DNA from: Clostridia bacterium
GTDB lineage: Bacteria > Bacillota > Clostridia > UMGS1810
DNA length: 64,000 nt
NCBI GenBank assembly: GCA_017621495.1
Contig: JAGATB010000033.1
Span: 70,310 to 134,309 of the forward strand
Reading direction: 5' to 3'
Part shown: positions 4,834-62,943 of the stretch, piece by piece
Layout: each line of letters begins with the position of its first letter
Numbering within the stretch: the first letter of the stretch is position 1
Notes under the pieces: model-generated
Seen by the model: the letters and a program-made list of their open reading frames with translations, nothing else
Database searches by the model: none
Told to the model about the DNA's origin: nothing
Translations under genes and position numbers: made by a program

Positions 4834-4860
4834 GTACATATCTTCAGAAAGGAAATCATT

Positions 4861-21580: not shown

Positions 21581-21590
21581 GGAGGATAAA

Positions 21591-22481: not shown

Positions 22482-22512
22482 ATATTTGCTAAATATAAAG
22501 GAGGTAAACTTT

Positions 22513-31796: not shown

Positions 31797-31860
31797 ACCA
31801 AACCTCCACATATATCAAACTTTATCTTCATAAAGTATTTTATGATGGAGGTTTTTTCAT

Positions 31861-41978: not shown

Positions 41979-44900
41979 TTATTCTATACAAATTGTTCCT
42001 TCAAAGGACTTTACGGCATCTCCTGTCATATAAACAGTTCCTTCATCTGTATATCTTATGATGAGGTCACCGCCTACGAGCTTAACCGTGATATCGGTGT
42101 TCTTTTTGCAAAGTCCCATTTCACAAGCTGCCACAGCCGCTGCACAAGCGCCTGTACCGCAAGCCCATGTCTCGCCGTTGCCTCTTTCCCATACACGCAT
42201 CTTAATTGTATTTTCACCTACAATTTTAATAAACTCTGTATTAACTCTTTGAGGGAAGAGTGCGCTGTTTTCAAATTTGGGTCCCAGTGTATTGATATCA
42301 AGCTTATCAACGTTGTCTACAAATACTATACAGTGGGGATTGCCCATGGAAACAGTGGTTATATCGTATTCATCGTCTGCTATTGTTACCCTGCGGTTTA
42401 CTACCTTGTCGCCGTCTAAGTTAACAGGAATGCTCTCAGGTTTCAAATCCGGCTTGCCCATGTTAACCTCTGCGGCTGCAATTTTGCCGCTCTGACGCAG
42501 TAACTTCACTTCTTTGATACCGCTTGCTGTTTCTATTGTTACATCCAGCTTGTCCACAATTTTGTTTTCGTAGAGGTATTTACCTACACAACGGATTGCA
42601 TTACCGCCCATTTGACCTTCACTGCCGTCCAAGTTGAATATCCTCATCTTGGCATCTGCAATCTTTGAAGGGCATATAAGCACCACGCCGTCTCCGCCGA
42701 TTCCGAAACGTCTGTTGGAGAGACTCACACCGAGACCTTCCGGATTGTCTATCTTCTGATCAAAGCAATTGAAATATATATAGTCATTACCGGTACCGTG
42801 CATTTTGGTAAACTTAAGCACTGTTTTTTCTGTTCTTAAGTTATTTATGTCTACAAGCTCAGTACTGAATTCGCTGTAACGGCTCTTTATGCTGTCTGCC
42901 AGTGCCGCAGCTGTGTCCAGAGAGGTAAGACAAGGTACGTTTCTTTCAATCGCTTTACGGCGTATTTTTACGCTGTCACGGGTAGGTATTCTTCCCTTGG
43001 AGGATGTTGATATTACGTAGTTTACCTTTCCGCTTTCTATAAGTGTGAGTGTATTGTTCTCGGGGTCTTCGTGTATCTTGCTTACTGCTTCAACTTCCAG
43101 GTCATCAAGTCTCAGAACTTCCGCTGTACCCTGGGTAGCATAGAGCTTAAATCCCAGGTCGGCATACTTTCTTGCTACAGAAGCTATCTCACTCTTGTCG
43201 GAGTTTCGTACCGTTACGAATACACCGCCGCGCTGCTTCATGTTGCATCCGCTGGAGAGCAGACCTTTATATATAGCTTCCTCACGAGTGTTTGCCAGTC
43301 CCAGAACTTCACCTGTAGACTTCATTTCCGGTCCTAAGTGATTATCAACATTTGCCAGCTTTTCAAATGAGAATACCGGTACTTTAACTGCAACATAGGG
43401 TGATGACGGATACAGACCTGTGCCATAGCCCATGTCCTTTAACTTCTCTCCGAGCATTGTTCTCGTAGCCAAATCCACCATAGGAATACCGGTAACCTTA
43501 CTGATGTAGGGGATAGTCCTTGAGCTTCGGGGATTGACTTCAATTACATAAAGCTCATTTTTGTATATGAGGTACTGTATATTTACCAGACCTATTACAT
43601 TAAGTGAAGCAGACAGATTTTTGGTGCTTTCAATTATCTTCTCTGTAAGCTCGTCGGATATATTCCATGCAGGGTATACAGCAATAGAGTCTCCGGAGTG
43701 TACACCGGTTCTCTCTATGTGTTCCATTATACCGGGGATTAATATATCTTCACCGTCACAGATTGCATCAACCTCAAGCTCTGTACCCATGAGATACTTA
43801 TCTATAAGCACGGGGTTTTCTATATTTGTCTCAAGGATAATCTTCATGTATTCCTTGATATCACTTTCGTTGAAAGCTATAATCATATTCTGACCGCCAA
43901 GCACATACGAAGGACGCATAAGCACAGGGTATCCGATTTCTTCTGCAGCCTTAAGTGCTTCTTCGGTTGTCATTATGGTTGAACCCTTGGGTCTTGCTAT
44001 GTTGTGTTTCTCTAAAAGTGCATCAAAGAGCTCTCTGTCCTCTGCTGCATCTATACTTTCAGCGGGAGTTCCCAGGATTTTCACACCCTGTGCACTTAAA
44101 TAGTTGGTAAGCTTAATTGCTGTCTGTCCGCCGAATGCTACAACCACACCCACGGGTTTTTCTACTCTTATGATGTTCATTACATCTTCATTTGTCAAAG
44201 GTTCAAAATAGAGTCTGTCTGCAGTGTCAAAGTCTGTAGATACGGTTTCCGGGTTATTATTAACTATAACAACTTCATATCCGGCTTTCTTAAGTGACCA
44301 TACACAGTGTACAGAAGCGTAGTCGAATTCTACACCCTGACCGATTCTTATGGGTCCGGAGCCGAATACTATGATAGTATCTTTCTTTTCTTTCCTTGCT
44401 TCGAGGAACTCAACTGCTTCGTTTTCTTCTTCGTATGCAGAGTAGAAGTAGGGGGTAGTTGCCTTGTATTCTGCTGCACATGTATCAACCATCTTGAATG
44501 ATGCATATGCGTGATTGATTACTTTTTTACCGCTTATTCTTTCTATGGCGGTATCGGGGTAACCGAGCTTCTTTGCACGCATGTACAATTCATCACTGAG
44601 CTCGCTTGAGTCTGCAAGCTCTTTCTCAAACAGTGCCAGATTAAGGAGTTTAGCAAGGAACCATTCATCAATCATTGTAATTTCATGAATTTTTGCTATA
44701 CTTATACCTCTTTTTAAAGCTGCATATACTACAAATAATCTCTGATCGTCACAATCATACAGACGTGATTCTATTTCTTCATCGGTAAGTGAGTGAAGCT
44801 TGGGGTTGTCCAGTGTATCAAGCTTAATTTCGGCACCGCGTACTGCTTTCATTATAGCTTCTTCAAATGATGAACCTATACTCATTACTTCACCGGTAGC

Positions 44901-46031
44901 CTTCATCTGAGTGCCGAGCTTCTTGGTAGCATATACGAATTTATCAAAGGGCCACTTGGGGAACTTGACCACGCAGTAGTCAACCGTGGGCTCAAATGCC
45001 GCATAGGTAGCACCGGTTACGTCGTTTAATATTTCATCAAGAGTGTAACCTATAGCTATCTTTGTAGCAACCTTTGCAATTGGGTATCCCGTAGCCTTGG
45101 AGGCAAGTGCAGATGAACGAGATACTCTGGGGTTAACTTCAATCACTGCATATTCAAAGCTCTCGGGATTGAGGGCAAACTGGCAGTTACAGCCGCCTTC
45201 CACTTCCAGTGTGTTTACTATATCGAGGGCTGCGTTTTTAAGCATTGCAAACTCTTTTGAAGCCAATGTCACAGCCGGAGCTACAACTATGGAGTCACCG
45301 GTGTGTACACCTACAGGGTCCACGTTTTCCATAGAGCATACGATTATACAGTTGCCCTTGCTGTCACGGATAACTTCAAATTCAATCTCTTTCCAGCCTG
45401 AAATACATTTCTCTACCAGTATCTGTGTAATAGGTGATTGATAAAGTCCGTTTGCAGCAATTTCACGCAGCTCTTCTTCGTCATTTGCTATACCGCCGCC
45501 GGTACCGCCAAGTGTAAATGCAGGACGGATAATCAAGGGATATCCTGTCTCATCAGCAAATGCTACAGCATCTTCAACTGTTGTTACAACTATTGACGGT
45601 ATGCAGGGCTGACCTATGGATTCCATGGTGTCTTTAAACATCTGACGGTCTTCTGCTTTATCAATTGTTTCGGGCTTTGCACCCAGGAGAGTGACACCGT
45701 GCTTTTCTAAAAAGCCTTCCTTGGCAAGCTGCATGGAGAGAGTAAGGCCTGTCTGACCGCCAAGTGTAGAGAGCAGACTGTCCGGCTTTTCTTTTTCTAT
45801 AATTCTTTTTATAGTTGTAAGATTAAGAGGTTCTAAGTATATTTCATCGGCCATTGCGTTGTCGGTCATTATGGTAGCGGGGTTGGAGTTTACCAGCACT
45901 ACTTCAAGCCCTGCCTGCTTTAACGCACGGCAAGCCTGGGTACCTGCGTAGTCAAACTCAGCAGCCTGACCGATAACTATAGGACCTGAGCCTATAACCA
46001 TAACTTTTTTGAGATTTTTATTAAGAGGCAT
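41979..46031 (-). CDS. carB: Carbamoyl-phosphate synthase large subunit fused in frame to a C-terminal DapF-like (diaminopimelate epimerase fold) domain
   Basis: Residues 1 to about 1070 are CarB: VMVIGSGPIVIGQAAEFDYAGTQA, two ATP-grasp halves, a second IVFGSGPIRIGQGVEFDY, and an MGS-like tail. Residues 1071-1350 are (V)LKFTKMHGTGNDY...FNLDGSEGQMGGNAIRC...SMGNPHCIVFV...NTEF...WERGNGETWACGTGACA, which is DapF-like. No stop codon separates the two parts. Confidence 0.9.
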   Translation of the reverse strand: MPLNKNLKKVMVIGSGPIVIGQAAEFDYAGTQACRALKQAGLEVVLVNSNPATIMTDNAMADEIYLEPLNLTTIKRIIEKEKPDSLLSTLGGQTGLTLSMQLAKEGFLEKHGVTLLGAKPETIDKAEDRQMFKDTMESIGQPCIPSIVVTTVEDAVAFADETGYPLIIRPAFTLGGTGGGIANDEEELREIAANGLYQSPITQILVEKCISGWKEIEFEVIRDSKGNCIIVCSMENVDPVGVHTGDSIVVAPAVTLASKEFAMLKNAALDIVNTLEVEGGCNCQFALNPESFEYAVIEVNPRVSRSSALASKATGYPIAKVATKIAIGYTLDEILNDVTGATYAAFEPTVDYCVVKFPKWPFDKFVYATKKLGTQMKATGEVMSIGSSFEEAIMKAVRGAEIKLDTLDNPKLHSLTDEEIESRLYDCDDQRLFVVYAALKRGISIAKIHEITMIDEWFLAKLLNLALFEKELADSSELSDELYMRAKKLGYPDTAIERISGKKVINHAYASFKMVDTCAAEYKATTPYFYSAYEEENEAVEFLEARKEKKDTIIVFGSGPIRIGQGVEFDYASVHCVWSLKKAGYEVVIVNNNPETVSTDFDTADRLYFEPLTNEDVMNIIRVEKPVGVVVAFGGQTAIKLTNYLSAQGVKILGTPAESIDAAEDRELFDALLEKHNIARPKGSTIMTTEEALKAAEEIGYPVLMRPSYVLGGQNMIIAFNESDIKEYMKIILETNIENPVLIDKYLMGTELEVDAICDGEDILIPGIMEHIERTGVHSGDSIAVYPAWNISDELTEKIIESTKNLSASLNVIGLVNIQYLIYKNELYVIEVNPRSSRTIPYISKVTGIPMVDLATRTMLGEKLKDMGYGTGLYPSSPYVAVKVPVFSFEKLANVDNHLGPEMKSTGEVLGLANTREEAIYKGLLSSGCNMKQRGGVFVTVRNSDKSEIASVARKYADLGFKLYATQGTAEVLRLDDLEVEAVSKIHEDPENNTLTLIESGKVNYVISTSSKGRIPTRDSVKIRRKAIERNVPCLTSLDTAAALADSIKSRYSEFSTELVDINNLRTEKTVLKFTKMHGTGNDYIYFNCFDQKIDNPEGLGVSLSNRRFGIGGDGVVLICPSKIADAKMRIFNLDGSEGQMGGNAIRCVGKYLYENKIVDKLDVTIETASGIKEVKLLRQSGKIAAAEVNMGKPDLKPESIPVNLDGDKVVNRRVTIADDEYDITTVSMGNPHCIVFVDNVDKLDINTLGPKFENSALFPQRVNTEFIKIVGENTIKMRVWERGNGETWACGTGACAAAVAACEMGLCKKNTDITVKLVGGDLIIRYTDEGTVYMTGDAVKSFEGTICIE

Positions 46032-46032
46032 A

Positions 46033-47112
46033 TTAGTTTTCTCCTTTCATAATGCTTACAAACTTTAGGATAATGTGACTTGTATTGTGAGGTCCGTTAC
46101 ACAGATTAGGCATAAACTGTGTTGACAGGGCTTTCTTGTCTGCGTATTCCAGACCTTCGATTGTCTTATCGTTGACGTTTATAAAGCTGATTTTGGCATT
46201 AGACGGGAGAGTAGCCTCGTCTACTATATAGCCGTGGTTCTGGCTTGTAATGAATATTTTTTCGAGCGATGTATCCTTAACCGGCTGATTGGCACCTCTG
46301 TGTCCGTATTTATGCTTCTTGGTTTCGGCACCCATAGCCAGAGCAAGTATCTGATGTCCAAGACCGCAGCCGTACACAGGGATATCTTTATCCAATAATT
46401 TCTTAACTTCTTCTGTAACTGACTTGCAATCGGCAGGGTTACCCGGTCCCTCCGAAATCACTACACCGTCAGCGTTTAGTGACTCTATTTCATCCGCTTT
46501 CGTGTCATATGGAACCACAGTTACATTAATACCGCTTTGTGTAAATATATCTATGAAAGAATCCGTAGCACCCATGTCTATCATGCAAACATTCATTGCA
46601 GCATCCTCTGCATTAACTGTTCTTTGGTTTGCAGTGCTTACAGCATTGTAATCAATCTCACCTGTGTGAGCCTTGAGCTCATTGATTATACTATCTATAT
46701 TTGATATATCTTTGGTTATCTTGCCGTTCATGGTACCGTTTTCACGGATAATTCTGGTAAGCTCTCTTGTATCGATGCCTGCAAGACCGACTATACCTTT
46801 TGACTTTAGAAAATCTTCCAGATTGCCTTCGGTTCTGAAATTCGATGGGGCATCACACATGGATTTGACAATGTAACCTCCAATCACAGGCTCCTTACTT
46901 TCCAATTCTTCGGAAATAACTCCGTAGTTTCCTATAAGTGGAAATGTCTGTACAACAATCTGACCGCAGTATTTGGGGTCTGTTAAAGTTTCGTTATAGC
47001 CGAGTACAGCAGTTTGGAAAACTGTCTCACCAACTGCTTCACCTTCAGCTCCTATGGCATATCCTTTAAAGATTTTGCCGTTTTCGAGTACAAGGTACAA
47101 TGTCTTATCCAT
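46033..47112 (-). CDS. carA: Carbamoyl-phosphate synthase small-subunit homologue with a substituted glutaminase triad
   Basis: The CPSase small-chain N-domain is present (GYAIGAEGEAVGETVFQTAVLGYNETLTDPKYCGQIVV, GIDTRELTR). The GATase domain scaffold is also present (VISEGPGNP, QNHGYIVDEATLP). However, GICLGHQ reads GCGLGHQ and GHPE reads FMPN. Its stop lies 1 nt before the carB ATG. Confidence 0.88.
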   Translation of the reverse strand: MDKTLYLVLENGKIFKGYAIGAEGEAVGETVFQTAVLGYNETLTDPKYCGQIVVQTFPLIGNYGVISEELESKEPVIGGYIVKSMCDAPSNFRTEGNLEDFLKSKGIVGLAGIDTRELTRIIRENGTMNGKITKDISNIDSIINELKAHTGEIDYNAVSTANQRTVNAEDAAMNVCMIDMGATDSFIDIFTQSGINVTVVPYDTKADEIESLNADGVVISEGPGNPADCKSVTEEVKKLLDKDIPVYGCGLGHQILALAMGAETKKHKYGHRGANQPVKDTSLEKIFITSQNHGYIVDEATLPSNAKISFINVNDKTIEGLEYADKKALSTQFMPNLCNGPHNTSHIILKFVSIMKGEN

Positions 47113-47180: not shown

Positions 47181-47218
47181 AAAAAAACAGGGAAGACATA
47201 AGCTGCCGTCCCTTTTTA
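47181..47218 (-). promoter_or_regulatory. Terminator-like hairpin plus U7 in the carA leader (possible attenuator)
   Basis: On the minus strand, AGGGACGGCAGCTTATGTCTTCCCT is followed by GTTTTTTT, about 70 nt upstream of the carA ATG. The stem is imperfect. Confidence 0.4.
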
Positions 47219-47262
47219 TTTTAAATCAGTTTAAAACAGATTATGTTATTTTTATCTTATAT

Positions 47263-47292
47263 ATTTTACAACAAAATATAGTGTGTTGTCAA
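47263..47292 (-). promoter_or_regulatory. Sigma-A promoter for the carA-carB/dapF operon
   Basis: On the minus strand: TTGACA, an 18-nt spacer, then TAAAAT. Confidence 0.55.
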
Positions 47293-47409: not shown

Positions 47410-48171
47410 TCAAACAGTGAGGACTTTTACATTTAAGTCCTCCAATATTTTTTGTATATCGTCACTGAATCCTTTTTCAGATATAAAACAATCAAGTTCA
47501 TCAAAATCAGCAAGCTTGGCAAAGCCTATTCTGCCTATTTTTGACTTGTCACATAAGTAATATTTTTTATTGGAATTCTTTATCATACATTGCTTTATGG
47601 CCCATTCGGTTTCGTTGCTGTCCAGTACTCCGCCGCTTGCTGTCACACCACGGCTTGAGAAAAACACCTTATTGGCATAGCAGTTATTTTGTATGTAATT
47701 GCATGCAAGTGTACCTACGAAGGATTGGTTGTTGCTCACAAATCCTCCTACGCCTATTACTTTTAAGTTGTTAAGACCTGCAAGCTCCGTTATAACGCGT
47801 ATGGAATTCGTCACTATAGTGATATCCTTCATGTTTTTCAGTTCTCTTGCCATATAGAAGGTTGTTGTAGAAGCATCTAGAAATATGGTATCTCCCGGTA
47901 CAATGTGCTTTACTGCTTCCTTGGCGAGCAGCTCTTTGGCATCTGCGTTAAGGTGCTTTCGCTTTTCAAGTGACATCTCATGATTGCTTTCATCTACAGG
48001 TATTGCACCGCCGTGAGTTCTTACCAGTGCTTCCTGCTTTTCCAATTTTTCAAGGTCACGGCGTACGGTTTCCTCGGTAACACCAAGCTCCTGGCTCAGT
48101 TTGCTTACCCATACAGCACCGTCGGATTTTAAAGTTTCTATAATTTTTTTCTGTCTTTCTACCGCAAACAT
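47410..48171 (-). CDS. DeoR/GlpR-family transcriptional regulator
   Basis: The N-terminal wHTH is RQKKIIETLKSDGAVWVSKLSQELGVTEETVRRDLEKLE. The C-terminal DeoR sugar-phosphate sensor domain has IFLDASTTT and VFFSSRGV. Confidence 0.9.
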   Translation of the reverse strand: MFAVERQKKIIETLKSDGAVWVSKLSQELGVTEETVRRDLEKLEKQEALVRTHGGAIPVDESNHEMSLEKRKHLNADAKELLAKEAVKHIVPGDTIFLDASTTTFYMARELKNMKDITIVTNSIRVITELAGLNNLKVIGVGGFVSNNQSFVGTLACNYIQNNCYANKVFFSSRGVTASGGVLDSNETEWAIKQCMIKNSNKKYYLCDKSKIGRIGFAKLADFDELDCFISEKGFSDDIQKILEDLNVKVLTV

Positions 48172-48282: not shown

Positions 48283-48918
48283 CTATTTAATTATTTTTAC
48301 CATATCGCCGTTTTTAATCCCTGCGGAATTGGCATCATCGGTATCAATATGCATTTCTACATTAAAGTCATCACGTACTCTTACCTGCACGTCATAAAAC
48401 TTTGTTGGTTTTACACTTTCTACCATCACGTCAACGTAATCGCCGTCTTTTATGCCATGACGCTCAGCGTATTCAGGTGTCAGATGTATGTGCCTGTTGG
48501 CGATTATTACACCTTGTTTCAGATACACACTGCCTTTAGGACCCACGATTACCAGCTTTTCCGAGCCTTCAACCTCTCCGGAAGGACGCACCGGGGGGCT
48601 AACCTTAAGCACAAATGTATCGGTCTTAGATATCTCTACCTGAGTGTTCTTTCTGACAGGACCAAGTACACGCACCTTTTCTATGGATTTGAGGGAAGGA
48701 CCAACTAAGGTTACACATTCTTCAGAAGCGAATTCTCTGCCCATAAGAGTTTTCTTTTTGGTAAGCTCGTAGCCTTTACCAAATAGGGTATCAAGGTCTT
48801 CCCTGGAAAGATGGATGTGTCTCTGGGACACACCTATTTTAATTTCGTTATTTTGGTCCTGCTTATATTCTTTTAAGATTTTACTTACAGCTTGTTCTAT
48901 CTTTTTTGCATCATACAT
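48283..48918 (-). CDS. pduL: Phosphate propanoyltransferase PduL with an N-terminal encapsulation-peptide-like helix
   Basis: The duplicated PduL motifs are GVSQRHIHLSREDLDTLFG and IIANRHIHLTPEYAERHG. The N-terminus is KKIEQAVSKILKEY. Confidence 0.9.
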   Translation of the reverse strand: MYDAKKIEQAVSKILKEYKQDQNNEIKIGVSQRHIHLSREDLDTLFGKGYELTKKKTLMGREFASEECVTLVGPSLKSIEKVRVLGPVRKNTQVEISKTDTFVLKVSPPVRPSGEVEGSEKLVIVGPKGSVYLKQGVIIANRHIHLTPEYAERHGIKDGDYVDVMVESVKPTKFYDVQVRVRDDFNVEMHIDTDDANSAGIKNGDMVKIIK

Positions 48919-48921
48919 TGT

Positions 48922-49590
48922 TTATTTCTCCTCGTCTGACGGGTCATTAAGTATGCTCAAATCAAAAAACTTAAGAAGCTCTGAGTGGGGGCTGGCTATG
49001 CATTCTGTGCCATATACCTCACCAACCGGCGAAGCTGCAGCACTTCCGTGCTCTATAGCTGCCTTTACTGCAGATACACTTCCTGCAACTACCAGTGTTA
49101 CCAGTCTGCCGCCGAGCCTTTCTTCCTTGTGCAAAAGGCGAACATCTGCCGCTTTACACATAGCATCAAGCCCTACTACAGAAGCAGTAAATCCGGAAAT
49201 CTCAAGTATTCCTATGGATTTGCCGAAGCCGGCTTCGGGAGCTTCAAATCCCTTCATGGTTTTGGGGAATTTCTTGTTGAATTTGTCCTTGTTTATATCC
49301 ATAAGATATGCCATCTTTTCTGTGCTGTCGTCGGGACGTGCTATTATATGAGATACTATGTATCTGCCTTTGTTCTCAGCGTATTCGGTACCTGCTTCTA
49401 TTGCAGCCTTAACTGCAGCTACACTGCCTTCGACTTTTACTACCATTATAAGCGGAGCGGGAGCATCCGGAGCGAAAGGCCTGTTTCTGTCAAAAGCTAT
49501 AACCTTTACGTCAGCAGACTTAGCCATTAAATCTGCAACGCACAGAGCAGTTGTAAAACTGTATACTTCAATTAAACCTAATGCATTCAT
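48922..49590 (-). CDS. Tandem-BMC-domain shell protein (BMC-T), 222 aa
   Basis: Two BMC repeats are present: NALGLIEVYSFTTALCVADLMAKSADVKVI and SIGILEISGFTASVVGLDAMCKAADVRLL. Confidence 0.85.
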   Translation of the reverse strand: MNALGLIEVYSFTTALCVADLMAKSADVKVIAFDRNRPFAPDAPAPLIMVVKVEGSVAAVKAAIEAGTEYAENKGRYIVSHIIARPDDSTEKMAYLMDINKDKFNKKFPKTMKGFEAPEAGFGKSIGILEISGFTASVVGLDAMCKAADVRLLHKEERLGGRLVTLVVAGSVSAVKAAIEHGSAAASPVGEVYGTECIASPHSELLKFFDLSILNDPSDEEK

Positions 49591-49615
49591 AATTTATAAC
49601 CGTACTCTTTCTCTA

Positions 49616-51025
49616 TTATACTATATGTAATCCGTCTACCAATACACATCTTCTGCTTCTTGTAAATGAATGTGCTGCAGTGAGGCCTTCACCTGTAGGT
49701 CCTGCTATGGTGAAAGTAGTGTAGCCTTCTCCGCCTGCACCTATTCCTGCATAGGAGGGGGCATTCTTTACAAATATAGTAGTTTCTACAGCTTTAGCAA
49801 ATTTCGACAGGTGGTCTACGTTCTTGGAATGGATATGTGCCGAATGTCTGTTTCCGTGTTCAGCCTGACAAGCTTTTGCTATAGCTTCGTCTATATCATT
49901 AACTCTGACTATAGCGAGTATAGGCATCATGAGCTCAACCTGTACAAATGGGTGAGAAGCATCTGTTTCACAGATTATGAGTTTAGTACCCGCCGGAGCG
50001 TTTATACCGATTGCTTCCAGGAACTTATATGCATCCTTGCCAACCCATTTTTTGTTTATGGAGTATTTACCGTCCTTATTTACCAGACATGTGTCCATAA
50101 GCTTCTGTATTTCGTCACCTTTTATAAGATAAGCACCGTGTTTCTGCATTTCTGTTATGAGAGTGTCTGCAATATTGTTAAATGCAAAACATTCCTTTTC
50201 TGCTATACAGGGCAGGTTGTTGTCAAAGCTTGCTCCGTCTACAATATCCTTTGCAGCTTTCAATACATCAGCTGTATCATCAACTATAACCGGGGGATTA
50301 CCTGCGCCTGCACCAATTGCCTTTTTGCCCGATGACAGGAGTGCTTTTACTACTCCGGGACCGCCTGTAGCTACAAGCATTCTCACGATAGGAGACTGCA
50401 TCATCTCATCAGAGGATTCCTTGGTAGGATTCTCTACAGATACTACGATGTTCTCAGGTCCGCCTGCTTCAAGTACAGCACGGTTTACCAGGTCAACTGC
50501 GTAGTTGGCTACATCCTTTGCGTTAGGATGCGGATTAAACACTACACCGTTACCGCCGGCTATCATACCCATGGAATTACATATTACTGTTTCTGAAGGA
50601 TTGGTAGAAGGAGTAATACTGCCTATTACACCGTAGGGTGCCATTTCTACCAAAGTAAGACCTGCATCTCCGGTCATTACCGATGGCTTCAAATCTTCTG
50701 TTCCGGGTGTCTTTTTTGCCACAAGCTGATGCTTTATAATCTTGTCGTTGACATTACCCATGCCGGTTTCTTTCACACCCATTACAGCCATTGTTTCTGC
50801 TTCTTCCAGAGTGAGACGTCTTATGTTTTTTATCATTTCCTCTCTCTGTGCTACAGAATAGTTCTTAAGCTCGTTGTATGCTTTGTTTACAGCCTGCAGA
50901 GCATCGGTCATTGAAGTAAATACACCTTTTTTGTGTGTCGCTGCCGATGTCTTAACTTCGCCGCCTGCATTTATTGACTTAATTACATTTGCTACAATTT
51001 CACTGATATACTTTTCGTTATCCAT
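49616..51025 (-). CDS. pduP: CoA-acylating aldehyde dehydrogenase (PduP/EutE-like) with an N-terminal encapsulation-peptide-like helix
   Basis: An ALDH fold with the catalytic Cys context NNLPCIAEKE. It is 469 aa long. The N-terminus is EKYISEIVANVIKSI. Confidence 0.9.
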   Translation of the reverse strand: MDNEKYISEIVANVIKSINAGGEVKTSAATHKKGVFTSMTDALQAVNKAYNELKNYSVAQREEMIKNIRRLTLEEAETMAVMGVKETGMGNVNDKIIKHQLVAKKTPGTEDLKPSVMTGDAGLTLVEMAPYGVIGSITPSTNPSETVICNSMGMIAGGNGVVFNPHPNAKDVANYAVDLVNRAVLEAGGPENIVVSVENPTKESSDEMMQSPIVRMLVATGGPGVVKALLSSGKKAIGAGAGNPPVIVDDTADVLKAAKDIVDGASFDNNLPCIAEKECFAFNNIADTLITEMQKHGAYLIKGDEIQKLMDTCLVNKDGKYSINKKWVGKDAYKFLEAIGINAPAGTKLIICETDASHPFVQVELMMPILAIVRVNDIDEAIAKACQAEHGNRHSAHIHSKNVDHLSKFAKAVETTIFVKNAPSYAGIGAGGEGYTTFTIAGPTGEGLTAAHSFTRSRRCVLVDGLHIV

Positions 51026-51052
51026 TTTTAACCAGGCCTTTCTTTATGTATT

Positions 51053-51601
51053 TTAAAGTATAGATTTCCAAAGATTTTTATCAGGACGTGGTATAACTGC
51101 ACTATCCAGGTACATACCTTCGTCTTTTATGGTTTCTCTTGCCTTTTCTATAGCTGCAGTTACAGCAGCTACTTCTCCGGTAATAAACAGATATGATTTA
51201 CCGCTCATACCCTTGGCAAGACGCAGTTCAATCAGCTTAACTATGGCTGTTTTAGCGGCAATATCTGCAGCTACAATTGCAGATGCTACAGAAAATGTCT
51301 CCAGTACACCAAGGGCAGAGACATCGCCCGGATCTGTAGATGCATAAATTGCAGGGAATATATCCTCGTGGGGATTACCAAGTACAAAGCTGTCCACCAG
51401 CTTGTTTGGAAACCGCTCCCTGGATGCTTCTACAGATGCTTTAACAGCACTTAGCTCACCTGATATTATTACTATGTATTTTCCGGGGCACACAGTCATT
51501 GCTTCAATAATTTCCACATCAGCGGTTTTTGCCATTATATCAGCCGCCTGTACACCGGTAGTTACATTAAAGTATTCAACCATTCCTAATGCTTTTGCCA
51601 T
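51053..51601 (-). CDS. pduT: PduT-like tandem BMC shell protein (BMC-T, putative 4Fe-4S pore)
   Basis: 182 aa with two BMC repeats. TVCPGKYIV carries the Cys at the PduT cluster-ligand position. Confidence 0.85.
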   Translation of the reverse strand: MAKALGMVEYFNVTTGVQAADIMAKTADVEIIEAMTVCPGKYIVIISGELSAVKASVEASRERFPNKLVDSFVLGNPHEDIFPAIYASTDPGDVSALGVLETFSVASAIVAADIAAKTAIVKLIELRLAKGMSGKSYLFITGEVAAVTAAIEKARETIKDEGMYLDSAVIPRPDKNLWKSIL

Positions 51602-51624
51602 GGAAGTTTATCCTTTCTGATTGC

Positions 51625-52953
51625 TTATTTTGACGATATCAGTATATATTTATCCGTGATATCTGTTACAGTACCGTTTATGGAACTGTGAAGTGCAAGA
51701 GAGAGAGCAGCATCCTTGGGGTCAGCTATCTTATCACCGGTCTTAACTGCATCGCCGATTTCTACACATGGTACGGCAGGTGCGCCTATTGACTGAGAAA
51801 GATATATCTTTACTTTCTTACACTCTATGCCTTCATCGCAGAGTGGGGCAGGTACATCGTACTTTACTATGTCCAGTCTGCGTATAAGTCTAGACATTGG
51901 GATTTGTCTGTAATTTCTTTCTTCTTTTGCACTTTGGGGTGCACTTAGCTTTTCGGGCTTAATATTATTCTTCCTAAGCCCGGATTTATATATTCCAATG
52001 AGCGTAGCAGGACTCAGTCCCTGAGGGCAGGCATACATTTCGCATACTCCGCATTGTGAGCAGTATTGAGTGTTTAATAAGACATTTGTGTTTGCGATAT
52101 CAGATGTCAGTGACCTCATAAAATCTCCGGGATTTATAGGGTGTCCCAACAGATTTCTGGGGCACATTTCTGTGCAGGTCTTGCACTGACAGCATGCACT
52201 CATAGCTCGTTTTACGCTCATGGTTACTTTCTGATTTCGTTTGTTTATAAGATAGTGTTCATTGGGCAATACCAATACAGCATTTGTTGTCTTGGTAACC
52301 GTATCATTTTCTGTGGCTTTTCTGCCGGTCATGGGACCGCCTTGTATTAATGCCGTGTCGCTAACGGTCTTGCCGCCGCAAAACTCCAACAGTGTAGAAA
52401 ACTTAGTGCCTATAGGCACCTTTACGGTCTGAGGTTTATGTACCTCGCCGGCTACGGTTACGTACTTATGTGTTACATTTTTACCGAGTTTTACCGCATT
52501 GTAAATGTTAAGTACGGTTTCTACGTTGTATACTATAACACCTACATCTATCGGTATACCTCCCGGCGGTACAAGCCTCTTTGTAACATCATAGGTTAAG
52601 ATTACCTCATCACCTGAGGGATACACTTCATTTAAAAGGTGTATTCTGCCGTTTTTATAATCTTTAATTTCTGTTTTTACAGCTTCTACAGCTTCTGTAT
52701 ATTCTTTTTTTATGCCTACTGCGAATTCCTTGGCACCTATGACTTCGGTTATCATAGACATAGTATTTATGATTTCGCTTGCATATACAGCCAGAAGCTG
52801 ACGGTGAACTTTAAGGAGAGGCTCACACTCTGCACAGTTTAATATTACAACATCAGCGTTTTTATTCAGTTTTGCATATGAGGGGAAACCGGCACCGCCG
52901 GCACCGGTTACACCCGCGTTTTGTAAGATGTCTTTTAATTTAGCAATATCCAT
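51625..52953 (-). CDS. pduS: PduS/RnfC-like flavoprotein with two 4Fe-4S motifs
   Basis: Motifs GVTGAGGAGFPSYAKL, an SLBB region, CCQCKTCTEMCP and CSQCGVCEMYACP. Confidence 0.85.
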   Translation of the reverse strand: MDIAKLKDILQNAGVTGAGGAGFPSYAKLNKNADVVILNCAECEPLLKVHRQLLAVYASEIINTMSMITEVIGAKEFAVGIKKEYTEAVEAVKTEIKDYKNGRIHLLNEVYPSGDEVILTYDVTKRLVPPGGIPIDVGVIVYNVETVLNIYNAVKLGKNVTHKYVTVAGEVHKPQTVKVPIGTKFSTLLEFCGGKTVSDTALIQGGPMTGRKATENDTVTKTTNAVLVLPNEHYLINKRNQKVTMSVKRAMSACCQCKTCTEMCPRNLLGHPINPGDFMRSLTSDIANTNVLLNTQYCSQCGVCEMYACPQGLSPATLIGIYKSGLRKNNIKPEKLSAPQSAKEERNYRQIPMSRLIRRLDIVKYDVPAPLCDEGIECKKVKIYLSQSIGAPAVPCVEIGDAVKTGDKIADPKDAALSLALHSSINGTVTDITDKYILISSK

Positions 52954-52959
52954 TTAAAA

Positions 52960-53223
52960 TCAAAACTCCAATTCTGTGCCGGAATCTACTATACCGACAA
53001 TTGCGGCGTCAATAGGAGAGTGCTCCATATTACAGCCTATCCTTGCTGCACTCCCTGTTGCTACAAGTACTATTTCTCCAATACCTGCGCCCACGTTATC
53101 TACAGCTACGAATCGTGACTGAGCCATGCCTTGGCAGGGCTCAATCACCATAAATTTACTTCCGACCAGATTTTCATTTTTTCTTGTTGATACGATGCTT
53201 CCTGTTACTTTACCGATAATCAC
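52960..53223 (-). CDS. eutN: BMC vertex pentamer protein (EutN/PduN/CcmL family)
   Basis: 87 aa, with MIIGKVTGSIVSTRKNENLVGSKFMVIEP and AAIVGIVD. Confidence 0.9.
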   Translation of the reverse strand: MIIGKVTGSIVSTRKNENLVGSKFMVIEPCQGMAQSRFVAVDNVGAGIGEIVLVATGSAARIGCNMEHSPIDAAIVGIVDSGTELEF

Positions 53224-53259
53224 AATATCACCTCATAATAAATATTTAGTGAGAGGGGA

Positions 53260-53613
53260 TTACTTAAGTGTAGGAATAATCTTTTCAACGTCACCGTGAG
53301 GTCTGGGAATTACGTATGTAGCGATGATTTCGCCAAGTCTGGAAGCGTTTGCCTGTCCTGCTTCTACAGCAGACTTAACAGCGCCTACGTCTCCTCTTAC
53401 CATAACACTTACGAGACCGGAACCGATTTTTTCTGTACCTACGAGCTGAACGTTTGCAGCCTTAAGCATAGCATCTGCAGCTTCAACTGCAGCAACTAAA
53501 CCTCTTGTTTCAATAATACCTAATGCTTCTAATGACATTTTCTTTTCCTCCTTAACAGTTTCGACAGCCGGGGCTGCCTTTGTAGTTTTTTTAGTAGTTT
53601 TTGATGCAGCCAT
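53260..53613 (-). CDS. BMC-H shell protein (PduA/PduJ-like) with a Lys/Thr-rich 25-aa N-terminal extension. An alternative internal start at 53538 is also SD-supported.
   Basis: The core is [58 protein letters not shown]. Both ATGs have SD sequences (GGTGG and AAGGAGG). Confidence 0.88.
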
Positions 53614-53631
53614 TTTTATCCCACCTTTAAA

Positions 53632-53907
53632 TTAGAATTTGGGGAGAATCTTTTCTACATCGTCGTGGGGTCTGGGAATTACATGAACAGCGATAAGCTC
53701 ACCGAGTCTTGCAGCGGTAGTTGCACCGGCTTCTGTAGCTGCCTTAACAGCACCTACGTCACCTCTTACCATTACGGTTACAAGACCTGAACCGATTTTT
53801 TCTGTACCTACGAGAGATACCTCTGCTGCTTTTACCATTGCGTCAGCTGCCTCAACTGCTGCTGTTAAACCTCTTGTTTCAATCATTCCTAATGCTTCTT
53901 TAGCCAT
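53632..53907 (-). CDS. BMC-H shell protein (PduA/EutM-like)
   Basis: [58 protein letters not shown]. Confidence 0.92.
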
Positions 53908-53927
53908 TTTTATATCCTCCTAAAAAA

Positions 53928-55130
53928 TTATTCATTAATTATAGCTATCTTAAGCCCCTTCATTTCAAGGTTTGTTCTGTGGGCTTCGTTGATTTGTGAA
54001 AGCGGGAACTTGTGTGTTATGAGCTTCTCAATAGGAAGTCCTATTCCCTTAGCACGTTTGAGAAAATCAAAAGTTGTTGCGTAGTCACGTAGGGTATATA
54101 CCCATGAGCCTACTGTTGTGATTTCCTTTGCACATATATCAAAGTGGGGATTAATTGTAGCATCGCCGCCGTTGATAAAGAATCCAAGCTCGCAAAGACC
54201 GCCGCCGTTGCGAATGAATTTATATATGTTGCTGTGTGCAACCGGTGAGCCTGTGCACTGGAAAGCAAAGTCTGCCAGGTATCCGCCTAATGCACTCTTT
54301 ACACCTTCTGCCAATGCATCCTGTCCTTTGAATTCTGTGAAGTTTACAGTTGCTGTAGCGCCCAGCTCCTTAGCAAAGTCAAGTCTCTGCTGCTGACCAT
54401 CAATTGCAACTATATTTTCTATACCCATGGTCCTCAGTACTGCAATACATATAAGTCCTATAGGACCGCAGCCCTGAACTGCCACTCGTGAGTTAAATCT
54501 TAAAATTCCTGTTGTCTTAGCACGTTCTACAGCATGGATTAATACTGCGCAGGGCTCGATAAGTATTCTCAAATCGAGACTTAAGTCACTTACATTAAAC
54601 ACAGTGGAGCCGCCTCTTATTACGAGGTAATCTGCAAACCATCCGTTTAAGTGAATGTCGTCATCAGGCAGGAGTCCGTAAACATCCGCACCGCCTACGT
54701 TTTGCTTGTTTAAGTCGAACATGGTAATATCCGGGTTATCCTTGAATATCATACATGTTACGACCTTGTCGCCGACAGCTAAGGGCTTTCCTGCACTGTC
54801 TTTGGTTACGTTTTTACCCATTTTAACTATTTCGCCTGTTCCTTCGTGACCGAGGACTAACGGAATGAGACCGAATGGGTCGCGTTTAAATTCGTGAGCA
54901 TCTGTTCCGCAGATACCGCAGCCTTCTACTTTAACCAGGATATCATCATCGCCGAGCTCCGGGATGGGGAATTCCTTGATTTCGTAGTTTTCGAGCTTAG
55001 TGAGCATCGCTGCACGGCTGGTTTTGGGTATTTCACCGTTTGAGCTTGCTTTTGCAGGAGCAGAACCCTGGTTCATTCCTGCTAAAATCTGCTGAACAAT
55101 AGCCTGAATTTGGTCTTGATTTACATTCAT
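53928..55130 (-). CDS. Zinc-dependent medium-chain alcohol dehydrogenase (sorbitol/threonine/butanediol-DH family) with an N-terminal encapsulation-peptide-like helix
   Basis: Motifs VEGCGICGTDAHEF, LGHEGTGEIV and the Rossmann VAVQGCGPIGL. The SD AAGGAG lies 7 nt before ATG 55130. The N-terminus is MNVNQDQIQAIVQQILAGM. The frame stays open upstream to 55499 (see findings). Confidence 0.85.
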   Translation of the reverse strand: MNVNQDQIQAIVQQILAGMNQGSAPAKASSNGEIPKTSRAAMLTKLENYEIKEFPIPELGDDDILVKVEGCGICGTDAHEFKRDPFGLIPLVLGHEGTGEIVKMGKNVTKDSAGKPLAVGDKVVTCMIFKDNPDITMFDLNKQNVGGADVYGLLPDDDIHLNGWFADYLVIRGGSTVFNVSDLSLDLRILIEPCAVLIHAVERAKTTGILRFNSRVAVQGCGPIGLICIAVLRTMGIENIVAIDGQQQRLDFAKELGATATVNFTEFKGQDALAEGVKSALGGYLADFAFQCTGSPVAHSNIYKFIRNGGGLCELGFFINGGDATINPHFDICAKEITTVGSWVYTLRDYATTFDFLKRAKGIGLPIEKLITHKFPLSQINEAHRTNLEMKGLKIAIINE

Positions 55131-55483
55131 AGCTATTCTCCTTGTATTAATTGAGTTTTCACATATGACTCCCACAGCACCGAAATTGAGTTCGGTGTTA
55201 GCTGCTTTGTCATTTGCGTGTGTTTCATAAATTATAAAACTATGATTTGAGGCTGTTACAGCTTTGATATTATACAGTACAGCCTGTAAGCTTTCAGTGG
55301 TCTTTGCCGCCTTGAGCATCATGTCACGTTGTTTTGCTGATGCAAGGTAACCTCCGTTTTCTATAAGATGATATATAAATTCATCCTTGATATCCCGGGA
55401 AACCCTGACAACGATATTTGAGCATATGTTTTTGGTAAGCTCTTTTACATGAAGGGAGGGATTATTCTCAATATTATATGTAT

Positions 55484-55996
55484 TTATGATAACTCCTCCT
55501 CAAAGACCTCAGCACCAAACTTAGCAAGATAGGTGTCTTGCTTTTCACTGCCTCCGCTTACTCCCAGTCCTCCGATTATTTCTCCGTTATATATAAGCGG
55601 AACACCGCCTCCGAAAATCACTATCTGTCCTTGATTGGTGAATTGTATACCGTAGAGTTCATCTCCGGGATTTGTCAGAGTTTTGAGAGTGCTCGTGGGC
55701 ATCTTGAGCGCCACCGATGTGTAAGCTTTGTTCAGTGCAACGTCATAGCTTGCAATGTAGGAGTCATCCATACATTCTATTATTACGGGTCTTGCGGCGG
55801 CGTTTGACACAGCAACCACTGCCTTGACTCCGATTTTTTCTGCTTCCTTTTCCACTCTTCGTACAAGCTTTCTTGCAGTATCGAGTGTTATGTATCCTTT
55901 GGAATAATCCGTCTTGGAAGTCTTTGATACACTCAGTACACTTTTTGTAACGGCATCGACCAAATCATTCAGTGTTTTGTCGTCCATAGTGTCCAC
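55484..55996 (-). CDS. GlcG/HbpS-like (DUF336, PduO C-terminal-domain-like) haem-binding protein with an N-terminal encapsulation-peptide-like helix
   Basis: The DUF336 core is ITLDTARKLVRRVEKEAEKIGVKAVVAVSNAAARPV...GGGVPLIYNGEIIGGLGVSGGSEKQD. The N-terminus is TLNDLVDAVTKSVLSV. Confidence 0.8.
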   Translation of the reverse strand: MDTMDDKTLNDLVDAVTKSVLSVSKTSKTDYSKGYITLDTARKLVRRVEKEAEKIGVKAVVAVSNAAARPVIIECMDDSYIASYDVALNKAYTSVALKMPTSTLKTLTNPGDELYGIQFTNQGQIVIFGGGVPLIYNGEIIGGLGVSGGSEKQDTYLAKFGAEVFEEELS

Positions 55997-56002
55997 CTTG
56001 GC

Positions 56003-56800
56003 TTATTTGCCCAATTCTTCCATTACCTTCTTTGTGATAGAAGCGATGAGGTCAGCATCAACATTTGATGAACATTTGGAATCCACGCCCTGCTTGCAGT
56101 TGTGACAGCTGTCTCCGTGAACGTTGAGGCAGATATCTGCAGGGTGCTTACCTGTCATGCCGAATGCTTTTCTGATTTCATAAAGTCTCTTAACCTGTGC
56201 AGAGGATAATTCCTTAGGTCCGCCGAGAACCTTTGAATGATAGAGAAGCTCTGCATAAAATTCGAGAGATTCCATCTTGTGATATGCAGAAAGAAGACTG
56301 TCTGAGTAGGAGAGTGCACCGTGATTTGCAAGAAGAACTGCATCAAAGTGCTGTAAGTATTTCTCTACTGCATCGGGGATTTCTTCTGTGGAAGGTGTAC
56401 CGTAGTCCGCAATCGGTACGCATCCGAGAGCGATTACTGCTTCAGGCATAATCGGCTGTGTGAGCGGAATGCCTGCTATAGCAAAGCTTGTTGCATAGAT
56501 AGGATGTGCATGTACGACTGATTTAACATCAGGTCTCTCTCTGTAAACTCTCATATGCATTTTGATTTCGGAAGATGGACGGAAGTTACCGTTTGCGGAA
56601 ATTACATTGCCGTTACCGTCTACCTTACAGATATAGTCGGGAGTCATGAAGCCCTTACTTACACCTGTAGGTGTGCAGAGAAATTCATTTTCGCCAATCT
56701 TAACGGAGATGTTACCGTCGTTGGAAGCAACCATTCCTCTGTCGTAAATTCTCTTACCGATTTCGCAGATTTGTTTTTTGATTTCGTATTCGTTTACCAT
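56003..56800 (-). CDS. Class II aldolase (L-fuculose/rhamnulose-1-phosphate aldolase family) with a Cys-rich linker and a C-terminal encapsulation-peptide-like helix
   Basis: Motifs SNDGNISV, RPSSEIKMHMRVY, the Zn ligands VVHAHPIYAT and LANHGALS. The C-terminal 50 aa are HGDSCHNCKQGVDSKCSSNVDADLIASITKKVMEELGK. Confidence 0.88.
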   Translation of the reverse strand: MVNEYEIKKQICEIGKRIYDRGMVASNDGNISVKIGENEFLCTPTGVSKGFMTPDYICKVDGNGNVISANGNFRPSSEIKMHMRVYRERPDVKSVVHAHPIYATSFAIAGIPLTQPIMPEAVIALGCVPIADYGTPSTEEIPDAVEKYLQHFDAVLLANHGALSYSDSLLSAYHKMESLEFYAELLYHSKVLGGPKELSSAQVKRLYEIRKAFGMTGKHPADICLNVHGDSCHNCKQGVDSKCSSNVDADLIASITKKVMEELGK

Positions 56801-56841
56801 TTCTATATCTCCTTATATAAAATTTTATTGCTTATAATGTA

Positions 56842-56870
56842 ATGATACCACATTTAACATAAACTGTCAA
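56842..56870 (-). promoter_or_regulatory. Putative internal sigma-A promoter ahead of the aldolase gene
   Basis: On the minus strand: TTGACA, a 17-nt spacer, then TGgTATCAT. It is embedded in a 9-bp-stem hairpin (56847-56884). Confidence 0.45.
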
Positions 56871-56888
56871 TACAAAAATGTGGTTTTT

Positions 56889-57377
56889 TTAATTTTTTTC
56901 TTTGTTTTTGTTGGTTTTTGTTTCAGGCCACCCTAAATAAGCTTTTATTTCGTCAATTCCTTGGTTTGCAAGAGAGTTGACTTTAAAGATTTTTTTGCAT
57001 CCGGCTAGCCTCAACCAATTTTCTGCGTTATGAACATTTGCGTTTTTGTGGTCTACCTTTGTTATTATTCCTATTACCTCTTTGGTAGTCATGCAAGTTA
57101 TGTTGGGGCTGTACAGAGAATAGGGCTCGGTGGCACTTAGCAGGAGTCCTATCACGTCAGCTTCATATGAATAAATAGCAAGTGCAGTACCGAAGTTCTT
57201 GGTTTGTATATATTCACCCGGAGTGTCTATAAGCAAATCATCCATGCTTATTGCCTGTGTTTTTTCGTACTCAATCGGTTTTTGACGAAGAGCCTGCGTT
57301 AATGTGGTTTTGCCGGCTTCGCTTCTGCCTATGAGCATCAGTCGTTTATGCTTTCTCATGTTTTTGTAATGGAGCAC
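56889..57377 (-). CDS. pduV: EutP/PduV-family small GTPase
   Basis: The P-loop is LIGRSEAGKTTLTQAL, followed by DTPGEY. The true start may be the Met at 57359 (MRKHKRLMLIG). Confidence 0.85.
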   Translation of the reverse strand: MLHYKNMRKHKRLMLIGRSEAGKTTLTQALRQKPIEYEKTQAISMDDLLIDTPGEYIQTKNFGTALAIYSYEADVIGLLLSATEPYSLYSPNITCMTTKEVIGIITKVDHKNANVHNAENWLRLAGCKKIFKVNSLANQGIDEIKAYLGWPETKTNKNKEKN

Positions 57378-57751
57378 ACTTCATATCCGAGGGTGCTTTT
57401 CATATAATCACTTACCGCATCGAAAGCCGCCTGAACCGAAGATACAGTACCTGTAATTATCAAAGTACCGCTGAATCTGTCCACGAAGCCAATCTCTGCA
57501 CCGGAGGCTTTGATTGCTATATCTCCCGCTATGATTGCTGTTTCACTGGGGGACACCGTCATTACTCCGATTGCTCCTTTGTTGTAGTCTTCGGAGGTGT
57601 CAAGACCGAGCTTTTGATATAGTATATCATCGGGGTTTGCTATTATATGGAGCAGTGTTATTTGTTTGCCGGGTACTAACTCTTGAACTATCCTTACTTT
57701 ATCCTGAAGCGATAATTTGTCCATAATATCTATCCTTTCTTCATCCGCCAA
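57356..57751 (-). CDS. Circularly permuted BMC-H shell protein (EutS/PduU type)
   Basis: RIVQELVPGKQITLLHIIANP and GVMTVSPSETAIIAGDIAIKASGAEIGFVDRFSGTLIITG are typical of EutS/PduU. Confidence 0.85.
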   Translation of the reverse strand: MADEERIDIMDKLSLQDKVRIVQELVPGKQITLLHIIANPDDILYQKLGLDTSEDYNKGAIGVMTVSPSETAIIAGDIAIKASGAEIGFVDRFSGTLIITGTVSSVQAAFDAVSDYMKSTLGYEVCSITKT

Positions 57752-62837: not shown

Positions 62838-62943
62838 TAATTATTATAGATTATTTTATACATTATATTATTGACTTTATATGCCAAATGGGTGTATAAT
62901 TAAATGTCAATATTATACAGCAGGGTCAAAAGGAGGAAATGGT

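Follow-up and report, generated by a model that had tools for sequence, protein, structure and literature searches.

The carA/carB::dapF locus

Two adjacent genes for a carbamoyl-phosphate synthetase (CPS) were analysed in a 64,000-nucleotide stretch of contig JAGATB010000033.1 from a Clostridia bacterium (assembly GCA_017621495.1, positions 70,310 to 134,309), hereafter called the window. The first gene encodes a homologue of the small subunit CarA in which all three residues of the Cys-His-Glu glutaminase triad are replaced; the second encodes the large subunit CarB fused to a domain resembling the diaminopimelate (DAP) epimerase DapF. The coordinates of both genes and of the features discussed below are collected in Table 1.

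Searches with Pfam, NCBIfam and phmmer revealed the carA product to be a full-length CarA homologue with both CarA domains present. PF00988 (CPSase_sm_chain) was matched over its full length (model positions 1-126/126) by residues 7-132 at 4e-50 and PF00117 (GATase) by residues 177-352 at 4.9e-39; the scores of the NCBIfam models PRK12838 and TIGR01368 were 401.3 bits (cut-off 221) and 391.7 bits (cut-off 307.35), respectively. The protein, thus, belongs to the CPSase small subunits by its two domains, its curated score and its adjacency to carB, and would fall outside the active class-I GATases because of the residues Gly250, Met334 and Asn336 at the triad positions. In E. coli CarA, the N-terminal domain is the main CarB-binding domain.

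The carB::dapF gene starts 1 nt past the carA stop codon and its ribosome-binding site lies inside the 3' end of carA, an arrangement consistent with translational coupling of the two genes; the carA-carB pairing was kept in all loci examined. The fusion protein scored 1479.6 bits with PRK05294 and 286.5 bits with TIGR00652. Its CarB part, which is 47% identical to E. coli CarB, contains the two ATP-grasp synthetase halves, the oligomerisation domain and the MGS-like allosteric domain in Pfam and is, by these domains, a CarB. Both ATP sites, the ammonia tunnel (gate C232/A251/A311 included) and the carbamate tunnel were conserved at the positions checked, for which we used a list of residues that we take to line these sites. 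The gate residues C232/A251/A311 are those named in the structural literature (PMC4655335).

The fused C-terminal domain resembles DapF in that it was matched twice by Pfam DAP_epimerase and over the full length by TIGR00652, in that the second catalytic Cys is present, and in that the DAP-binding equivalents checked (N11, N64, N157, N190, E208 and R209) are retained. Unlike DapF, it is fused to CarB, has no adjoining dapL and carries Gly in place of the first catalytic Cys (C73 in Haemophilus influenzae), which places it outside the DapF enzymes with two catalytic Cys residues. Within the 64-kb window, no second carA, carB or dapF was found.

Table 1. Features of the carA/carB::dapF locus in the window.
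Feature	Position	Strand	Remark
Promoter-like TTGACA-18-TAAAAT	47263..47292	-	upstream of carA
Leader hairpin and U-run	47181..47213	-	between promoter-like element and carA start
carA-like gene	46033..47112	-	359 amino acids; CPSase small-subunit homologue without Cys-His-Glu triad
N-terminal CPSase_sm_chain domain	46708..47112	-	residues 1-135
Lys47	46972..46974	-	replaces Ser47, 100% Ser among canonical relatives
Class-I amidotransferase-like domain	46036..46599	-	residues 172-359; catalytically degenerate
Cys249	46366-46368	-	TGC; E. coli equivalent Ile268 (core position)
Gly250	46363-46365	-	GGT; E. coli equivalent Cys269, nucleophile elbow
Met334	46111-46113	-	ATG; E. coli equivalent His353
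Asn336	46105-46107	-	AAT; E. coli equivalent Glu355; Met334-Pro335-Asn336 replaces His353-Pro354-Glu355
Gly340-Pro341-His342	46087..46095	-	E. coli G359-P360-H361, small-subunit end of ammonia tunnel; invariant in the clade of the window CarA
carB::dapF gene	41979..46031	-	1350 amino acids
CarB synthetase and allosteric part	42852..46031	-	residues 1-1060
CarB Ser258 and Ala262	45246..45260	-	E. coli Asp258/Gln262, beside tunnel-lining Tyr261
C-terminal DapF-like domain	41982..42815	-	residues 1073-1350
Gly1143	42603-42605	-	replaces first catalytic Cys (H. influenzae C73)
Cys1291	42159-42161	-	second catalytic Cys retained (C217 equivalent)

Replacement of the glutaminase triad

The initial annotation had described a gapless alignment to the CarA amidotransferase domain with substitutions at all three triad positions, and this was confirmed by phmmer against E. 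coli CarA (1bxr_B, 1cs0_B), where residues 188/189-374 of the E. coli protein matched residues 169/170-355 of the window CarA without a gap. In the elbow region, 'dipvygcglghqilala' of the window stands over 'dipvfgiclghqllala' of E. coli; in the His/Glu region, 'stqfmpnlcngphn' stands over 'sfqghpeaspgphd'. The triad codons were taken straight from the DNA sequence of the window, and every coordinate given for them in that annotation was exact. In addition, position 47 is Lys; in E. coli CarA, the Ser at this position touches the glutamine carbonyl.

That the three triad codons are errors of sequencing or assembly is barely conceivable. The identical protein was present on five contigs, at least three of which derive from different samples (ENA ERZ28654748, Logan SRR12529194 and Logan SRR12529200), and the same residues recurred in dozens of diverged homologues; no point in support of an artefact was found. 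The source samples of the identical protein are ruminant gut metagenomes.

An AlphaFold2 model of the window CarA, built on 35 homologues, reached a mean pLDDT (predicted local distance difference test) of 90.1 and a pTM (predicted template-modelling score) of 0.91. Foldseek comparison of this model gave a template-modelling score (TM) of 0.91 to E. coli CarA, with 38-39% identity over the structural alignment, and of 0.83 to the amino-terminal moiety of human CPS1. Since a strand spans residues 246-249 and a helix residues 251-259, the elbow is formed by Gly250, whose predecessor Cys249 ends the strand. None of the Pfam GATase, NCBIfam, phmmer and AlphaFold2 comparisons placed a Cys at the elbow.

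Conservation and selection in the clade of the window CarA

Among the 120 best homologues, 35 protein clusters (P0001-P0035) at 61-99% identity have GCGLGHQ/FMPN-type motifs; these are referred to as clade A. Their common motifs are [YF][GA]CGLGH[QE] and QF[MILVATN][PV]N.C, P0027 being the member with Ser instead of Cys249. All 35 sequences have G250 and N336, position 334 varies among M, I, L, V, A, T and N, and position 47 is K, A or I. The GLGH, QNHG and GPH motifs are retained, and the glutamine-pocket residues G222/G224, L251, Q/E254, N292 and G294 are invariant or nearly so. The earlier view that the scaffold is conserved and not in random decay is borne out by these motifs and by the purifying selection described next.

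Codon analysis of four clade-A members gave ratios of nonsynonymous to synonymous substitution rates (dN/dS) of about 0.07-0.11 for the GATase-like domain, 0.02-0.06 for the N-terminal domain, 0.02-0.03 for CarB and about 0.04 for the DapF-like domain; these ratios are rough, as synonymous sites were saturated (dS 1.3-3.4, some not computable), and we mainly relied on dN ratios between domains. The dN(GATase)/dN(CarB) ratio was 4.1-6.9 in Cys-less pairs versus 1.2-3.7 in 16 canonical pairs. Measured against CarB, the evolution of the glutaminase-like domain is about 2.5 times faster than that seen in canonical relatives. Where CarB identity was 90-95%, the GATase domains of Cys-less pairs shared 61% identity and those of canonical pairs 85%. 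Within the clade, identity is 76-92% for the N-terminal domain and 92-95% for CarB.

The promoter-like element and the leader (47181-47292) were near-identical in four clade-A loci with only 64-73% CarA identity. The leader has a folding energy of -14.3 kcal/mol over a 55-nt stretch; its hairpin and U-run are kept in clade A and absent in clade B, a second Cys-less clade introduced below. With Rfam, no family was found in the leader at the gathering threshold, and the permissive threshold returned sub-threshold, unrelated matches only. The hairpin is a possible attenuator.

These data bear on whether the operon is redundant and decaying, making no carbamoyl phosphate. Such a state might be suspected from the loss of key residues in both the glutaminase and the DapF module and from the faster evolution of CarA than in canonical relatives. 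It is highly improbable in view of the intact open reading frames (ORFs) at every locus, the low dN/dS of CarB with all catalytic residues checked present, the persistence of the clade over 61-99% identity with saturated synonymous sites, the conserved promoter and leader, and the occurrence of Cys-less pairs inside arginine (arg) and pyrimidine (pyr) operons. We conclude that the window carA is a real gene, under purifying selection with relaxed constraint at the catalytic and glutamine-binding positions, and not a decaying one.

The Cys one residue before the elbow, to which the initial annotation had drawn attention, is present, and the comparative data say that it is not a displaced nucleophile. 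A non-canonical amidotransferase, using Cys249 or another nucleophile or a different amide donor, could be argued from the presence of this Cys in 34/35 clade members and from the kept GPH motif at the tunnel end. In the model, however, residue 249 ends the β-strand and residue 250 forms the elbow; moreover, position 249 corresponds to the core residue Ile268, is Ile in 100% of canonical sequences and I, V or L in most other Cys-less lineages, and is Ser in P0027. Therefore, Cys249 was rejected as a shifted nucleophile and is regarded as a core substitution. The loss of His and Glu as well, the former being replaced by hydrophobic residues that vary, the loss of Ser47 and the accelerated evolutionary rate further make an unconventional amidotransferase quite improbable.

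Recurrent loss of the nucleophile among relatives

For a census of the nearest relatives, the best 150 matches from an exhaustive HMMER search of 1.84 billion representatives at 50% identity were evaluated. The Cys was absent in 94 of these 150 representatives, 81% of which have Gly at the elbow. Across the 94 Cys-less sequences, S47, H353, E355, G359 and P360 vary freely, although the 52 canonical representatives show 100% conservation at each of them, and Q273 is down to 61% and S47 to 23%; the fold motifs GLGHQ and NHG and G241 are kept. Cys-less CarA is, on these alignments, abundant in gut and rumen Clostridia and not a singular oddity.

The wider set comprised 80 loci from GTDB species representatives; the matches listed in the genome scan were at ≤52% identity, with none from clade A. 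In this set, three loci (L031, L036 and L043) encode a Cys-less CarA with Gly-Tyr-Lys/Arg at the triad positions, L062 has Gly-Thr-Asp and L063 Gly-His-Asp. A further group, clade B, is about 53% identical to the window CarA and has Ser, Leu/Arg/Gln and Ser/Phe at the three positions. In CarB, conservation of D258 and Q262 reaches 98-100% among canonical relatives, whereas 3-4 of 5 Cys-less lineages have other residues there.

In a bootstrapped neighbour-joining (NJ) tree of CarB::DapF, the topology (B,(L094,A)) was recovered in 200/200 replicates, the canonical L094 lineage being sister to clade A. As clade B lies outside this pair, the losses in clades A and B are independent. A single ancestral loss for both clades, as suggested by a first NJ tree, was overturned once the canonical L094 lineage was included. 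L062, L063 and L031/36 were each placed among canonical sequences; together with the split between clades A and B, this implies at least five independent losses. Loss of the nucleophile is, hence, judged by tree placement, recurrent among close Oscillospirales relatives, having taken place at least five times.

The drift across lineages also bears on a sensory function, in which the dead pocket would bind glutamine or a similar ligand without hydrolysing it and tune CarB to nitrogen status, the DapF domain might sense DAP, and CarB would still run on ammonia. The pocket residues conserved in clade A together with the new Asn336 suit such a pseudoenzyme, and so does the DapF domain, which keeps the DAP-binding residues checked and its low dN/dS despite the loss of C73. 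Set against this are the replacement of Ser47 by K, A or I and the pocket drift at Q273 and S47 in the Cys-less lineages, and we consider a regulatory pseudoenzyme unlikely.

Separately, P0262 (611 residues) was noted as a Cys-less CarA homologue with Gly-His-Asp that carries about 255 additional residues at its N-terminus; this extension is shared by 16 members of its cluster.

Operon context

Two Cys-less pairs were located in biosynthetic operons. In an Acutalibacteraceae metagenome-assembled genome (MAG; L062, 4816-15096), the Cys-less carA directly follows argC-argJ-argB-argD-argF and precedes carB::dapF; in an Oscillospiraceae MAG (L031, 6432-14285), it follows pyrR-pyrC-(unknown)-pyrF and precedes carB. 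A function other than carbamoyl-phosphate synthesis is therefore hard to reconcile with these positions, which, together with the intact CarB, point to synthesis of carbamoyl phosphate from free ammonia.

The CarB-DapF fusion is widespread in Oscillospirales, Ruminococcus bicirculans included. The closest canonical relative of the window CarA (P0037) is 57% identical to it, and its CarB::DapF is 85% identical to that of the window. It lies in the nitrogen-limitation context glnA-ANTAR-carA-carB::dapF-dapL, with dapL called from TIGR03542 at 556.8 bits, and the same order, with an ANTAR regulator gene, was found as one same-strand cluster in the closest canonical relatives L094 (1197-9456), L095 and L096. 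This cluster is a Firmicute equivalent of the Bacteroides locus for high-affinity use of ammonium, in which carAB and dapLF are combined. The window operon is without glnA, ANTAR and dapL neighbours and is flanked by recQ and a gene for a DeoR regulator; neither ddh nor dapL was found within the 64-kb window.

A dapL gene lies downstream of 19/31 fusions with C73 versus 0/16 fusions without it (Fisher p = 2e-5, not corrected for phylogeny), and an ANTAR gene lies directly upstream of carA in 22/68 canonical loci versus 0/9 Cys-less loci (Fisher p = 0.053, likewise uncorrected). At 13 loci (in the range L012-L091), a canonical CarA was encoded together with a DapF domain in which A, G or S replaces C73. 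Strict coupling between the loss of the CarA triad and that of the DapF Cys was rejected, given these 13 loci and the opposite combination, a dead CarA with an intact DapF, in L063.

A divergent Mem_trans gene neighbours both the clade-B locus L009 and the canonical locus L097, the two products being 46% identical. This weak synteny suggests inactivation in situ rather than a diverged paralogue.

As a separate observation, AsnA, the ammonia-dependent asparagine synthetase, is encoded within 16 kb of carA (62881-63951, + strand; TIGR00669, 334 bits). In L011, an asnA gene (4033-5040) lies 3 kb from carA; this enzyme likewise uses free ammonia instead of glutamine.

A probable ammonia-dependent CPS with a non-catalytic CarA

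The comparative evidence is best fitted by an ammonia-dependent CPS with a retained non-catalytic subunit. With moderate confidence, we consider the window carA/carB::dapF pair to encode a working CPS that would use free ammonia, with CarA kept as a non-catalytic subunit. CarB would carry out the normal chemistry, namely phosphorylation of bicarbonate, attack by NH3 and phosphorylation of carbamate. The CarA homologue, with Gly at the nucleophile, Met at the general-base and Asn at the partner position, would no longer be able to form the γ-glutamyl thioester; it would bind and stabilise CarB, completing the small-subunit interface, and may also still supply an NH3 entry or tunnel. The ruminant gut origin of the samples and the AsnA genes near carA in the window and in L011 suit this reading.

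The ancestral operon would have belonged to a low-ammonium regulon with the gene order glnA-ANTAR-carA-carB::dapF-dapL. In gut and rumen lineages with constantly rich ammonia supply, the operon would have escaped low-ammonium control, and afterwards both low-ammonium modules, the glutaminase and the DapL-partnered DapF epimerase, would have lost a catalytic Cys. We infer from the data that ammonia is used, that CarA has a structural role and that this ecological driver was at work; more broadly, modules serving at low ammonium would decay where a lineage always has plenty of ammonia. In its most extended form, the proposal holds that Oscillospirales of gut and rumen underwent at least five CPS I-like conversions to obligate ammonia dependence in which a pseudo-glutaminase subunit was kept, coordinated in the present case with silencing of DapF in a dismantled low-ammonium operon, and that both dead modules are under selection, possibly for ligand sensing or a structural role; this we put forward only tentatively, as slightly short of an even chance.

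Several points weigh against ammonia dependence with a purely structural CarA. E. coli CarB has a poor affinity for ammonia, and no adaptation lowering the ammonia requirement has been demonstrated in the window CarB. The specific loss of the ANTAR/glnA context in Cys-less loci is only marginal at the counts given above. In clade A, Asn336 and Gly340-Pro341-His342 are invariant and the pocket residues Q/E254, N292 and G294 are kept, which is more than a pure scaffold would need; it leaves room for a residual pocket or tunnel role, possibly as NH3 entry or in ligand sensing. Finally, a canonical carA elsewhere in the genome, if present, could confine the pair to a narrower or different role, such as that of an isozyme for high ammonium. 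The initial annotation had left the choice between an ammonia-dependent CPS and a repurposed scaffold subunit; the intact CarB, the arg and pyr operons and the relaxed catalytic positions fit this proposal, the ammonia dependence itself being the inferred part.

Comparison with known systems

The glutamine-dependent, 'CPS II'-type enzyme of E. coli (PDB 1jdb, 1bxr, 1cs0) shares the two-gene architecture. Unlike in E. coli, the equivalents of Cys269, His353, Glu355 and Ser47 are all replaced in the window CarA, and the window CarB has an extra DapF-like domain and replacements at D258/Q262. According to Rubino, Nyunoya and Lusty in 1986, C269G and C269S mutants of E. coli CarA reportedly lose glutamine-dependent and keep ammonia-dependent activity. 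These mutants carry the same residues at the same position as found here in nature, where clade A has Gly and clade B Ser; they are point changes made in the laboratory, however, whereas the natural replacements have become fixed throughout clades in which His, Glu and Ser47 are lost as well. A crystal structure of the E. coli holoenzyme with C269S is available (1c30), and tunnel-blocked E. coli CPS variants lose glutamine use and keep ammonia use (PMC4655335).

Mitochondrial CPS I (human CPS1; PDB 5dou, 5dot) likewise keeps a catalytically dead amidotransferase-like domain, and the proposal that it is the right analogue held up. Human CPS1 takes free ammonia and is ammonia-specific through replacement of Cys by Ser (Ser294); it is a single polypeptide with a strict need for N-acetylglutamate, in which only the Cys is lost and Gln318 closes the former tunnel (PMC4655335). 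Unlike CPS1, the window has two separate ORFs, three lost triad residues, Gly at the nucleophile position, and both the GPH motif and the CarB gate C232/A251/A311 kept. Thus, of the CPS I-type features, the window pair has the nucleophile-less amidotransferase module and lacks the fused single polypeptide. The two are of independent origin, and the window CPS is most likely a bacterial analogue of mitochondrial CPS I that is encoded by two genes.

When purified on its own, bacterial CarB acts as an ammonium-dependent CPS, and Bacteroides thetaiotaomicron needs the orphan CarB2 (BT3866), a proposed ammonium-dependent CPS, at high ammonium (PMC8121099). CarB2 resembles the window pair as a CPS of a gut bacterium that is without glutaminase activity and proposed to act at high ammonium. 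Unlike the window pair, CarB2 is an orphan large subunit without CarA and comes from a different phylum, whereas the window CarA-like subunit is retained and apparently co-translated with CarB. In Bacteroides, carAB and dapLF are paired at one locus as low-ammonium enzymes, the alternatives to CarB2 and Ddh (PMC8121099); this locus is mirrored by the glnA-ANTAR-carA-carB::dapF-dapL cluster of the canonical relatives.

Implications for annotation and nitrogen metabolism

All eubacterial CPSs examined were stated in 2021 to be glutamine dependent, with prokaryotic ammonium-dependent CPSs known only from Archaea and the orphan CarB2 proposed as the first eubacterial exception (PMC8121099). In the literature searched, neither Cys-less bacterial CarA nor CarB-DapF fusions were found described, and the window CarA would be part of a large set of Cys-less gut-Clostridia enzymes absent from this literature.

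If ammonia dependence holds, pseudo-glutaminase CPSs would be a common convergent trait of gut and rumen Clostridia, converging with CPS I, and Gly at the elbow would be a sequence marker for dependence on ambient ammonia in arginine and pyrimidine synthesis, with a bearing on rumen nitrogen nutrition and diet-dependent gut ecology. Because TIGR01368 is passed, pipelines would call such proteins 'glutamine-hydrolyzing', and metabolic models derived from this annotation would contain the wrong nitrogen donor. This naming of Cys-less CarA looks like a systematic annotation error. TIGR01368 is entitled 'glutamine-hydrolyzing carbamoyl-phosphate synthase small subunit', and the clade-B protein P0047 already bears this name in NCBI.

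Other features of the window

A glycyl-radical-enzyme microcompartment locus (48283-61045, - strand) lies beside the DeoR regulator gene (47410-48171, - strand). It comprises genes for a pyruvate formate-lyase (PFL)-like enzyme (58526-61045), a radical-SAM activase, a class II aldolase, PduV, an Fe-S RnfC-like protein, an aldehyde dehydrogenase, PTAC (phosphotransacylase) and a zinc alcohol dehydrogenase, along with five BMC/EutN shell genes. A microcompartment locus is located upstream of carA in L004 and L008, too.

A phage-type integrase gene (763-2226, + strand) adjoins a tRNA gene (2321-2392, - strand) in the lower-GC (0.36) left end of the window; an integrated element may have its border here. 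An ORF of 358 codons at 30735-31811 (- strand) has no Pfam match and lies on the strand opposite to its neighbours. A cluster at 20375-23721 (+ strand) encodes homoserine dehydrogenase, a GHMP kinase, which is probably homoserine kinase, and an ACT-domain aspartate kinase, and represents the aspartate-family pathway, which supplies DAP and lysine as well.

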